From a virus (taxonomy: Duplodnaviria; Caudoviricetes), in IMG/VR virus record IMGVR_UViG_3300012953_000012, positions 64,001 to 128,000 of that record: DNA of 64,000 nucleotides; one strand, 5' to 3'. Within the stretch, counting starts at the first letter, position 1; the number at the start of each line of letters is the position of its first letter. The translations under genes and the position numbers were made by a program. The notes under the pieces were generated by a model. That model saw nothing but the letters and a program-made list of their open reading frames with translations. It was not told the origin of the DNA and searched no databases. This document shows positions 12,654 to 48,942 of the stretch, piece after piece.

Positions 12654-12696
12654 GTGATCTCCGTTTCAGCAGTGGTGGAGGGGAACCCCCTCCACC

Positions 12697-12727
12697 TACT
12701 TACGGAAGCAGCACCCCCTTTTAACGG
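12697..12727 (-). promoter_or_regulatory. Class E (early-type) motif TTAAAA-N9-GCTTCCGTAAGTA, copy 1
   Basis: Minus strand ccgTTAAAAgggggtgctGCTTCCGTAAGTA. Confidence 0.75.
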
Positions 12728-13138: not shown

Positions 13139-13537
13139 TCAGTCCTCCTCGGCGGGTTCGGGTGAGGCGGCAGGTGCAGCGGGGAGCGGGCAAGACAAGG
13201 GAGCGATTTCTGGCGGTTGCTCAGACGGCTCTGCCTCGATCATCCCAGCGTTCCACAGGCTCATGGACTTGTGCCACTCATGGCGAGCCTCGATGGTCAG
13301 CACGAAGTCCGCAGCCTTCTCGCACTCGGGGTCAGAGAACTGGGGTCCCTCGGCATCCGACTCGCAGGAGCAGTGCTCTTCGATGAAGGTCCGAAGGTAC
13401 TTGGCCTGCTGGGTAGCCCAGTTGTCGTACTGGTCGAGTTCGGCCTGATAGACACGGGCGTCCCGCAGGACGGTCTTGTGGGCGCACCCGGCTGTCAGAC
13501 TGACAGCGACGAGAAGCGCGGTGATTTCTGCTTTCAT
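13139..13537 (-). CDS. Putative lipoprotein
   Basis: MKAEITALLVAVSLTAG|C signal-peptide-II-like N-terminus; GGAGG RBS; Pro-rich C-terminus. Confidence 0.65.
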   Translation of the reverse strand: MKAEITALLVAVSLTAGCAHKTVLRDARVYQAELDQYDNWATQQAKYLRTFIEEHCSCESDAEGPQFSDPECEKAADFVLTIEARHEWHKSMSLWNAGMIEAEPSEQPPEIAPLSCPLPAAPAASPEPAEED

Positions 13538-13541
13538 GGCG

Positions 13542-13599
13542 ATTCGCCTCCAACGATGGTTCACCGGACTATACCGGCGACACATCGTTGGAGGCGAAT
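13542..13599 (-). promoter_or_regulatory. RBS-sequestering hairpin (perfect 17-bp stem) upstream of lipoprotein gene
   Basis: Arms 13583-13599 and 13542-13558 are exact reverse complements; 3' arm contains GGAGG. Confidence 0.85.
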
Positions 13600-13611
13600 A
13601 GAGGGGCTACC
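13597..13611 (-). promoter_or_regulatory. Class L (late-type) motif GGTAG-cccct-CTAT
   Basis: Matches TAG-N5-CTAT; CTAT overlaps the start of the hairpin 5' arm. Confidence 0.7.
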
Positions 13612-13918
13612 ACCAGTGGTGGTCAGGGTGGGAATCCAACTCGGCAACGTAGGCGGCCACGGCGGCAGCATCCCGAGCAGCCTCGATGGCTCCCACAGCC
13701 CGCTCCAGGGCAGCGTAGCGAGCGGGGTGCTCCAGGATCATGTCGGGGTCGAGGTCGATGCCGAAGGCGTCCTTGAGGGACACCGTTTCAATCTCGGCCT
13801 CTTCGCCGGGTTGGTCCCAGGTCGCAGCGCAACCAGGGGAGTAGGTCAGGGAGCCGGTCACGATGCCCATTCCGGGCAGGGTCACAGCGTCTTCGGTGGT
13901 CAGGGTCACAGTAGGCAT
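13607..13918 (-). CDS. Hypothetical protein
   Basis: CTGGAG RBS before ATG 13918 (MPTVTLTT). Confidence 0.6.
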   Translation of the reverse strand: MPTVTLTTEDAVTLPGMGIVTGSLTYSPGCAATWDQPGEEAEIETVSLKDAFGIDLDPDMILEHPARYAALERAVGAIEAARDAAAVAAYVAELDSHPDHHWW

Positions 13919-13955
13919 GGGGTCTCCAGGGTGGGGGTCAACAACGCCGAAAATG

Positions 13956-13987
13956 CCCCCCGCCAACGTCGCTACTGTCGCGGGGGG
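13956..13987 (-). terminator. Possible weak intrinsic terminator
   Basis: ccccccgc/gcgggggg stem followed by cauuuu on minus strand; 16-nt loop is atypically long. Confidence 0.3.
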
Positions 13988-14275: not shown

Positions 14276-14483
14276 GAAAACTCCAGTTGGGGTTGATGGG
14301 GAAGGGGAACAGGAAGGGAATGTCGGACCGCCCAAGGATACGAACCTCGGACCACGACTCACTCGTTGGAGCGAGCGTCAACACATCGCCCTGCTGCTCC
14401 AACAGCAAGGATCAACGTCGGTTGTCGTGGTGACCGTCACGGCCATAAGGGAGGCAGCATCGTCGTCGCTGCCTCCTTGCATC

Positions 14484-14513
14484 TACTTACGGAAGCAGAC
14501 GAGAGTTTTAACG
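14484..14513 (-). promoter_or_regulatory. Class E motif copy 2
   Basis: Minus strand cgTTAAAActctcgtctGCTTCCGTAAGTA. Confidence 0.75.
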
Positions 14514-16624: not shown

Positions 16625-16839
16625 CCCGCTGTGACCGCTGCCCGAAGCCCCTCGGCGTCCATCGGGTGTCGTGGTTCAACCTCGACACCATCTGCACTCG
16701 CTGTCAGGCCCAGGAAGAAGCCCACCCCGACTACGCCTATGCCCGCGATGTAGAACGCAAGCGGGTACAGGTTGGTGACTACAACTTCGTTGGAGTCGGC
16801 TGGCCTGGAGTCAACGGCAGGGTGCTCCGCACCCGGTAG
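16621..16839 (+). CDS. Small zinc-finger-like protein (CDRC...CTRC)
   Basis: ATGA overlap; GGAGG RBS. Confidence 0.6.
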   Translation: MTRCDRCPKPLGVHRVSWFNLDTICTRCQAQEEAHPDYAYARDVERKRVQVGDYNFVGVGWPGVNGRVLRTR

Positions 16840-16872
16840 ACGGGCTATCGCCTCCGACTGTTCGGAGGCGAT
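16835..16872 (+). promoter_or_regulatory. Class L motif GGTAG-acggg-CTAT fused to an 11-bp RBS/start-codon-sequestering hairpin
   Basis: atcgcctccga-ctgt-tcggaggcgat (16847-16872) buries GGAGG and the AT of ATG 16871. Confidence 0.85.
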
Positions 16873-36276: not shown

Positions 36277-36319
36277 CGGTAGTCCTGGGGTAGTGTGGCG
36301 AGAACCCCTACAGGAGACC

Positions 36320-43939: not shown

Positions 43940-44067
43940 AATGGTGCTCCACTTTCACGGGCTGTACCCAAAATGTACCCTTGCGGTCCCCCCTCCTTCG
44001 CCACTTTGTCTGAGGAATCCAGGACTTTGGATCCTGGGGGGCAGACTTACTCTCCGGTCGGGTAAGG

Positions 44068-45312: not shown

Positions 45313-45749
45313 TCCCGCCTGTGGAGGATCTGATGCCCACCATGAGAGTGGATCTCTACTCCATGGTGAACGGCTATGGATTCTGCGACCCGGTTGAGGA
45401 AGGCTCTGAGAGGGTCTACTTCCGGGTAGAGGATTTCGTGCGGCTGGAGGCAGGGGAACCCCTGCCTATCGCAGGTGAACTGGTCGAGGTGGGCGACGTG
45501 GCTACAGGGGGCCGAAGCCCACGAGCCACATCGGTCCACAGACTCGTGGCACCACAACGTGTTCAGGGATCTGTGAAGTCGTTTGACCCGGTGAAGGGTT
45601 GGGGTTTCATCGAGCGCGGCGCGGACCTGTACTTCCTCCACAGGAGTGATCTCGTGGACCCCTTCACTCCTGTGATCGGCACCACGGTCGAGTTTTACGT
45701 TGGAAGGAAGAAAGGCCGACCCCGAGCCTGCTACGTCTCACGGGTATGA
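45309..45749 (+). CDS. Tandem cold-shock-domain protein
   Basis: NGYGF...RVYFRVEDF and GSVKSFDPVKGWGFI...LYFLHRSDL. Confidence 0.8.
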   Translation: MIPPVEDLMPTMRVDLYSMVNGYGFCDPVEEGSERVYFRVEDFVRLEAGEPLPIAGELVEVGDVATGGRSPRATSVHRLVAPQRVQGSVKSFDPVKGWGFIERGADLYFLHRSDLVDPFTPVIGTTVEFYVGRKKGRPRACYVSRV

Positions 45750-45768
45750 TCCGACCAAAGGAGTGGAC

Positions 45769-48873: not shown

Positions 48874-48942
48874 ACGTTATCGCCCATGTGGGATGCGTGA
48901 CGTAGCCCCAGCGCGGGTACAGTCTCCCCTCGGAGGAGACCC

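Follow-up and report, generated by a model that had tools for sequence, protein, structure and literature searches.

The leader of a small lipoprotein gene in an uncultivated marine giant phage folds into a long RNA hairpin that buries the gene's own ribosome site, and the loop of this hairpin has the sequence of an extended −10-like element. Our preferred reading, to which we give a probability of roughly one half, is that the hairpin acts as a translational block on the lipoprotein gene, and that the gene is translated from a transcript of its own, started by a promoter in the loop.

Source of the DNA and searches

The window, which is the whole stretch of 64,000 nucleotides analyzed here, comprises bases 64001–128000 of a virus record of 205,564 bp (62% G+C; completeness ~46% by CheckV). 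The genes of the record include those for a family A DNA polymerase, an NAD ligase, and a baseplate J protein. By DNA polymerase the nearest database relative is a 485-kb uncultured phage (44% identity), and the sequencing runs containing window DNA are marine metagenomes. The source is an uncultivated marine giant phage.

Phage records queried at the DNA level with a 1.7-kb segment of the locus gave no matches, and neither did single-sequence locus searches that used a 119-aa ORF or the baseplate protein. Loci of relatives were recovered by alignment-based and handle-based searches; about 80 lipoprotein homologue loci were collected. No RNA runs were listed for a 2.3-kb stretch; one metatranscriptome run contained a small share, stored as contigs from which transcript starts and ends are not readable.

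Pfam and PHROG searches with nine local proteins gave nothing usable. When 30 motif-bearing or nearby genes were compared with PHROGs, only a baseplate protein, a polymerase exonuclease, and an FmdB-like regulator were matched; because matches were so few, temporal classes could not be assigned by annotation. A search of the record with PF00940 (T7-like RNA polymerase family) gave no match, and the control genomes gave none either. For sigma-70 region 2 there was a single weak match (E = 0.006, below the family cut-off) in a 302-aa ORF (window 23521–23697, minus strand), which had no PHROG match.

The lipoprotein gene

The start codon of the lipoprotein gene (Table 1) is sound because all 26 aligned homologues begin at the ATG (13537–13535) and carry the lipobox. 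The family comprises at least 67 protein clusters from marine and other metagenomes and has 27 invariant columns. Its AF2 model (pLDDT 89) is a helical hairpin of two long helices, with a small beta hairpin and the Pro-rich tail. Compared by fold with PDB and AFDB clusters, the model had no match at E ≤ 0.001, and comparison of the protein with Pfam and PHROG gave no family. Downstream of the gene lie a 131-aa protein with a hydrophobic C-terminus and then a 65-aa protein with an N-terminal TM segment, the latter with its own class I promoter-like motif.

Table 1 Features of the lipoprotein locus and of the baseplate site (window coordinates)
Feature	Position	Strand	Description	Basis or remark
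Loop element GGTAnnnT	13568..13575	−	GGTATAGT, extended −10-like; hexamer TATAGT (13573–13568) is the hexaloop	homologue conservation
Outer stem, 5′ arm	13583..13599	−	ATTCGCCTCCAACGATG, with anti-SD CCTCC at 13594–13590	sequence, folding
Outer stem, 3′ arm	13542..13558	−	CATCGTTGGAGGCGAAT, with Shine-Dalgarno (SD) GGAGG at 13551–13547	sequence, folding
Inner stem, 5′ strand	13574..13580	−	UCGCCGG, 7 bp	folding
Inner stem, 3′ strand	13561..13567	−	CCGGUGA	folding
Motif at hairpin base	13598..13611	−	tGGTAG-N5-CTAT, deviant copy; TAG 13609–13607 is the stop of the upstream ORF	one of 21 copies
Upstream small ORF	13607..13918	−	~103 aa, start ATG 13918	transcripts would run into hairpin
GC-rich upstream hairpin	13950..13987	−	8 bp, CCCCCCGC/GCGGGGGG, 16-nt loop, then CAUUUU	read from sequence
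Class I ("class E") promoter-like element	14484..14513	−	CGTTAAAA-N9-GCTTCCGTAAGTA	points toward locus
Lipoprotein gene	13139..13537	−	132 aa, lipobox LTAG|C, five invariant Cys, Pro-rich tail	gene proposed to be regulated
Baseplate site	16835..16873	+	canonical CGGTAG-N5-CTAT running into 11-bp stem over GGAGG and the AU of AUG	z = −5.8

The hairpin and the ribosome site

The first-pass annotation of this DNA had described a perfect 17-bp stem, extended by a ccgg/ccgg inner stem, with GGAGG in its 3′ arm 5 nt before the lipoprotein ATG. The perfect 17-bp stem is as described, and its 5′ arm begins at the AT of a CTAT. The inner stem is also there but is longer than had been thought, with 7 bp including one G-U. 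GGAGG does lie in the 3′ arm, but its spacing to the ATG is 9 nt rather than 5; from the end of the arm to the ATG there are 4 nt. The outer and inner stems are separated by a 2×2 internal loop, and the inner stem closes the hexaloop UAUAGU. In total the duplex has about 24 bp and an energy of about −45 kcal/mol. In a 106-nt context the minimum free energy was −52.4 kcal/mol (z = −8.4), and none of 200 shuffled sequences was equally good.

The energy needed to open the ribosome site was calculated for positions −16 to +5 in a 130-nt context. The set of genes ranked by this measure was called crudely by GC3 and held 232 genes, 230 of which were ranked. The ribosome site of the lipoprotein gene was the most occluded of all (rank 1 of 230), requiring 27.8 kcal/mol vs. 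a mean of 11.2 (sd 4.4). The probability that the SD is unpaired was 0.00 for every 5′ end at or upstream of about 13595–13596. As in the T4 type of control discussed below, the helix sequesters the SD in the long transcript, at an opening energy of about 26 kcal/mol.

The hairpin resembles the intrinsic terminators of the phage in being a GC-rich stem-loop located where an ORF ends. Unlike these, it has no U-tract after the stem, where AAUCGCCAUG is found instead, and the next gene has its ribosome site in the 3′ arm; the recognizable terminators of the phage genome carry UUUU after the stem (e.g., 12445–12408). A terminator scan with a loop limit of 8 nt did not list the hairpin.

Conservation and covariation

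The same long hairpin was found in nine distinct leader sequences, namely the window and eight relatives, which form one clade with 72–100% protein identity. All nine have the UAUAGU loop and UUGGAGG in the 3′ arm, and their hairpin energies range from −35 to −50 kcal/mol (z from −3.0 to −7.6). An alignment of the nine leaders by MAFFT with RNAalifold was set aside, as it left the 3′ arm off by one column between subclades and gave 12 pairs only; covariation was counted instead in an ungapped register anchored on UUGGAGG. In this register 118 of 126 cells were paired, vs. 46–76 when the partner was slid by 1–3 nt. The middle of the stem is wholly different between subclades and yet paired (CGAUG/CAUCG, GGGAGG/CCUUCC, GGCAAGGG/CCCUUGCU). 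Double compensatory changes occur at four outer-stem positions (offsets −1, −3, −4, and −5), and inner pair 4 goes from C-G through U-G to U-A among the relatives, so that five or more pairs show compensatory change. The intergenic anti-SD CCUCCAA is kept in eight of the nine distinct sequences. In locus L001 two transitions yield G-U and U-G pairs, which are tolerated only in sense-strand RNA. Because of the covariation, the kept anti-SD, and these strand-specific pairs, comparison of the relatives indicates that the structure is an RNA element under selection and that SD pairing is part of what is selected.

In a sister clade (L015, L077–L079, and L018) a 7-bp stem encloses GGTATAGT and leaves the SD untouched; at two pairs of this stem, L077 and L079 differ by compensatory changes. 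Because this clade keeps the stem without SD contact, the stem around GGTATAGT may have a second or different role, or may be a precursor of the longer hairpin. The 552,571-bp contig Ga0080013_1000001 carries two paralogues of the lipoprotein gene (L016 and L026) ~289 kb apart, with 79% and 68% identity to the window's lipoprotein and with an SD hairpin at one only.

The loop element

The most conserved letters of the leader are those of the loop, cGGTATAGTcc, which are invariant in the hairpin clade, the sister clade, and L003. Among 57 distinct homologous loci, 37 have GGTAnnnT 17–41 nt upstream of the start, vs. ~2% expected per locus, and these 37 include loci without the hairpin. In the remaining 20 the gene abuts the preceding ORF. 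The final base of GGTAnnnN is T at 37 of 39 homologous sites, vs. 11% genome-wide. Within the phage's own genome, GGTAnnnT was found 12–45 nt before starts 17 times in the sense and twice in the antisense orientation, with 1.9 expected.

An A at −11 and a T at −7, with G at −14/−13, are the signature of extended −10 elements of the sigma-70 family. The sequence cGGTATAGT (13576–13568) matches TAnnnT, including the conserved A (position 2) and T (position 6), and is preceded by G at −14/−13. From the hexamer to the lipoprotein ATG there are 30 nt. By these matches, GGTATAGT is a sigma-70-type extended −10-like element. Being conserved upstream of the gene throughout the phage family, it is also a better candidate for the switch promoter than GGTAG-N5-CTAT. 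From sigma-70 geometry, the predicted +1 of a loop promoter is A13561, the seventh nucleotide after the hexamer. The predicted leader would be 24 nt long in the window and 22–27 nt in all 16 loci tested, with A at +1 in 9 of the 16. A13561 lies 3 nt before the 3′ arm, and the RNA predicted from it would have no anti-SD, the whole 5′ arm being absent.

As a class, GGTAnnnT usually follows G or C and resembles an extended −10 element without a −35, a third promoter-like class beside class I and CGGTAG-N5-CTAT. Other examples in the window are at 43940–43985 (minus strand) and at 45720–45768, 48900–48942, and 36280–36319 (plus strand). Because one gene with GGTAnnnT upstream encodes the polymerase exonuclease, the class is not obviously late. 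By a crude count of enclosing pairs, 76% of GGTAnnnT sites vs. 67% of controls were enclosed by stems, which did not separate them. Two further hairpins with a GGTAnnnT loop lie in the record outside the window. The one at G000:C1:139490–139545 (plus strand) has a ~20-bp stem around GGTAGTGT; that at 194720–194765 (plus strand) encloses GGTATCGT in an 11-bp stem and has a U-rich tail after it. Both resemble the hairpin studied here, except that the SD is outside the stem.

The motif at the base of the hairpin

The first-pass annotation had named GGTAG-cccct-CTAT as a late promoter overlapping the first bases of the stem. The letters are there on the minus strand as described (GGTAG at 13611–13607, N5 cccct, and CTAT at 13601–13598), and the motif is a real class. 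G[GT]TAG-N5-CTAT has 21 copies in the record, all co-oriented with a downstream start 22–60 nt away, and exact CGGTAG-N5-CTAT was observed 18 times vs. about 0.3 expected by chance from base composition. Of the one-mismatch variants, 10 of 20 stand in promoter position. Forms of the motif (CGGTAG, CGGTAA, or CGATAA-N5-CTAT) persist in every hairpin-clade relative. By its distribution CGGTAG-N5-CTAT is a credible promoter-like class, which lies ahead of at least one structural operon.

The copy at 13611–13598 has the core GGTAG-N5-CTAT and the co-orientation, but it is the most deviant of the 21 in the record. It carries a T at a position that is C in all 20 others and a further T following CTAT, which none of them has, and it stands 60 nt from the ATG, compared with 22–43 nt for the others. 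Loci L012, L013, L048, and L073 read TGGTAG-GT-CGGTAG or a variant of it at this place, and the window lineage has TGGTAG only (13607–13616), as if the 8 nt between two GGTAG repeats had been deleted, fusing the stop of the upstream ORF with the motif. A composite promoter of CGGTAG-N5-CTAT and GGTAnnnT was considered and set aside, since most copies of each stand alone; the spacing from CTAT to GGTA is N11 in the sister clade and N22 in the window.

Folding as a function of the transcript start

Comparison of long and short leaders, which the first-pass annotation had proposed, showed that the cost of opening the ribosome site depends on where the RNA starts. In the window it was 26.4 kcal/mol for the long leader, 16.6 for a start at CTAT+7, and 10.3 for a start 7 nt after the loop hexamer. 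For the nine hairpin-clade sequences the corresponding ranges were 17–27, 13–21, and 8–10 kcal/mol. In the sister clade without SD pairing, the cost was flat at about 9–12 kcal/mol whatever the start.

The expectation that RNA starting a few nucleotides after CTAT would lose most of the anti-SD was not borne out as stated. RNA begun at CTAT+7 would keep 9 bp of the outer stem and the inner stem, with 16.6 kcal/mol still to be paid against a baseline of 10; the opening energy reaches that baseline (about 10 kcal/mol) only for starts at or beyond CTAT+9. The relatives have the anti-SD 5–11 nt after CTAT, so a +7 start retains it, at 13–21 kcal/mol. Given the deviations of the copy and the partial occlusion of its CTAT+7 transcript, the assignment of the switch promoter to GGTAG-N5-CTAT is probably wrong. 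What stands of the proposed transcript-start-dependent switch is the hairpin, its covariation, and the SD in the 3′ arm; what probably does not is the promoter that had been named for it.

A second hairpin at the baseplate gene

The geometry that the first-pass annotation had in mind does work at another site, where a canonical CGGTAG-N5-CTAT runs into a stem over the start of a baseplate gene (PHROG 975; Table 1). The baseplate ribosome site ranks 3 of 230 in occlusion. Its anti-SD occupies CTAT+3 to +7, and a start at +7 would free the SD. The motif, as CGGT-N7-CTAT, is conserved upstream of the baseplate gene in six phages with 40–73% protein identity (the comparison set being L102, L103–L106, and the window). 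The SD-sequestering stem itself was found in the window and its nearest relative L102 only, with one pair changed from A-U to U-A in L102. In L103 the motif supplies the 3′ arm of a hairpin that looks like a terminator and has UUUCUCU after it.

The upstream unit and possible read-through

A class E cluster had been placed upstream of the locus in the same orientation, and the motif, here called class I, is indeed found at 14513–14484; there are about 17 near-identical copies of it in the record. Two small ORFs separate it from the studied hairpin, and between these ORFs is the CAUUUU hairpin of Table 1. The latter, at 13987–13950, is absent from the list of the terminator scan, which had a loop limit of 8 nt. 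From its sequence it may be a leaky terminator that stops much or part of the upstream transcription. No promoter-like motif of its own was found for the ORF at 13918–13607, and for this reason some read-through seems necessary. A homologue of this ORF is at the same position in L001 and in L069–L080. The scan showed no U-tract terminator directly before the studied hairpin.

One marine metatranscriptome contig of 238 nt, from a relative ~93% identical, spans 13380–13606 plus 10 more letters. The ATG and the two arms all lie within it, and upstream of them it has other letters than GGTAG. As a weak hint, it fits read-through RNA with both arms; it could also be DNA carry-over.

Other features of the class I units and of this intergenic region were recorded. 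L001 has at about 2575–2605 a different, equally paired intercistronic stem (CCCCCGCAC/GUGCGGGGG) without a U-tract. Copies of class I, such as that at 12693–12727 (minus strand), are directly followed by a short GC hairpin, e.g., GGUGGAGGGG-uucc-CCUCCACC; by position, such a hairpin is likely the 5′-terminal stem-loop of the transcript. Right after the class I motif at 14513–14484, and preceding the first real gene of the operon, is a 7-codon ORF, MLPPLWP (14437–14460, minus strand), with a strong AGGAGG.

Discussion

We propose that the hairpin is an RNA-level block that would act only on transcripts entering from upstream. Such RNA would hold both arms, and its SD would be locked in the ~24-bp duplex. 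The gene's own promoter would be inside the hairpin, its −10-like GGTATAGT (13575–13568) being the loop, and RNA made from it would start near A13561, with its ribosome site free in a leader of 24 nt. The tGGTAG-N5-CTAT copy at the 5′ base may provide another, weaker way in, whose transcript would still be partly blocked. This switch logic fits the computed energies: RNA started from the loop would lack the 5′ arm, and the opening cost drops from 26 to 10 kcal/mol.

Three other explanations were weighed against this one. In the version of the first-pass annotation, GGTAG-N5-CTAT at 13611–13598 is the operative late promoter, and read-through RNA is silent. The motif is strongly over-represented and directional in 21 of 21 copies, half of its 20 one-mismatch variants are in promoter position, all hairpin-clade relatives keep a form of it, and starts at or beyond CTAT+9 would reach the baseline. 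At the baseplate gene, moreover, the motif abuts the anti-SD, a +7 start frees the SD, and CGGT-N7-CTAT recurs in six phages. Against it, the copy at the lipoprotein gene departs from the other 20 at three positions and is farther from the ATG than any of them; a CTAT+7 start leaves 16.6 kcal/mol in the window and 13–21 in the relatives; and the RNA-library contig, from a relative without the GGTAG letters, keeps the hairpin region. The label "late" comes from one annotated baseplate gene, most motif-bearing genes being without annotation. We judge this version distinctly unlikely. The hairpin could instead be mainly an intercistronic element of processing, stability, or termination (an RNase III-type site, a 3′-end protector, or a U-less terminator of the upstream unit), with SD burial secondary or relieved by cleavage. 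RNase III processes hairpins between genes in phages T7 and lambda, and like these the present one is a long, slightly irregular intercistronic duplex beside a start, whose cleavage could alter downstream translation. Its 17 bp plus 7 bp, near-continuous across the 2×2 internal loop, reach the length of about 20 bp or more that RNase III requires. The operon has another intergenic hairpin at 13987–13950, GGTAnnnT also sits inside long hairpins at 139.5 kb and 194.7 kb, the latter with a U-rich tail, and the sister clade keeps the stem without SD pairing. Unlike the T7 and lambda hairpins, however, this one has a conserved loop, a selected anti-SD, and an internal promoter-like element. CCUCCAA in eight of nine sequences and UUGGAGG always in the 3′ arm point to selection on SD pairing, a loop that stays invariant while the stems drift is not needed by a plain RNase III site or terminator, and the U-tract of the genome's recognizable terminators is missing. 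We regard this explanation as unlikely.

We think it very improbable that the inverted repeat or its loop is a protein site, whether recognized as a DNA operator by a dimeric regulator or as an RNA hairpin by a translational repressor or antiterminator, or serving as an extruded promoter like those of phage N4. The stem covaries around an invariant loop GGUAUAGU with invariant closing CGG/CCG, the motif CGGTAG-N5-CTAT is nearly palindromic, and CTATACCG pairs with CGGTATAG in the sister clade as an inverted repeat of 9 bp (8 bp and one wobble pair), all of which would suit such a site. However, GGTAnnnT persists in distant loci without an inverted repeat, and its function therefore needs no hairpin; the G-U pairs of the relatives suit one-strand RNA and not a DNA operator. 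The promoter hairpins of N4 have stems of 5–7 bp, and the present stem is far longer. Nor was GGTAnnnT more often enclosed by stems than the controls in the crude test described above.

An extension of our preferred reading, the translational block with a loop promoter, would make the locus a three-state rheostat. Three promoter classes would feed one gene, each transcript keeping a different length of anti-SD: read-through from class I would be fully blocked at ~26 kcal/mol, class III starts just after CTAT half blocked at ~17, and class II starts from the loop open at ~10. The yield of translation would then be set by the form of polymerase or sigma that makes the RNA, and the baseplate operon would have a second guard. 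We consider the rheostat quite improbable. If true, it would be a general way for giant phages to insulate modules dropped into foreign transcription units.

The analogy drawn in the first-pass annotation, to the control of T4 e, soc, and I-TevI, is documented (PMC3014915). In T4 the genes e (lysozyme), soc, 49, and I-TevI have inhibitory leader hairpins with late promoters inside (PMC3014915). Long transcripts started upstream have the SD sequestered in the helix, and the structure is kept in related phages; promoter elements in the DNA for the 5′ strand or loop give the gene its own transcript without the 5′ strand, and the regulated gene lies downstream of an early-type unit (PMC3014915). 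The present locus likewise has the SD in a helix, promoter-like motifs within the DNA of the hairpin, an early-type motif upstream, and a conserved structure. It differs in belonging to an unrelated, uncultivated marine giant phage of 62% G+C, and in its candidate promoter elements, which are the extended −10-like GGTAnnnT and CGGTAG-N5-CTAT rather than the T4 late TATAAATA. Unlike the T4 hairpins, its hexaloop is exactly the −10 hexamer, and its stem is much longer and stronger (~24 bp, about −45 kcal/mol). The protein proposed to be regulated is a lipoprotein without an assigned function. As cited in PMC3014915, SD-sequestering hairpins also occur at mobE of Aeromonas phage Aeh1 and at other homing-endonuclease genes. 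As at mobE, the hairpin here hides the ribosome site of a gene within a foreign transcription unit; unlike at mobE, there is no mobile-element context, and the promoter-in-loop layout is specific to the window locus.

It is plausible, from the covariation and the sequence features described, that this is a new case of T4 e/soc/I-TevI control, present twice in one giant marine phage lineage. It would be an unusually clean natural example, with a hexaloop that is the −10 hexamer, a stem of ~24 bp, and covariation over nine natural variants. The three promoter-like classes defined by sequence are handles on the transcription programme of an unculturable phage group. If our reading is confirmed, the expression of a widespread family of small lipoproteins without a known fold family would be tightly gated, and the T4 trick, by which a gene lying in an earlier unit stays silent until its own promoter fires, would extend to a distant lineage of uncultivated marine giant phages.
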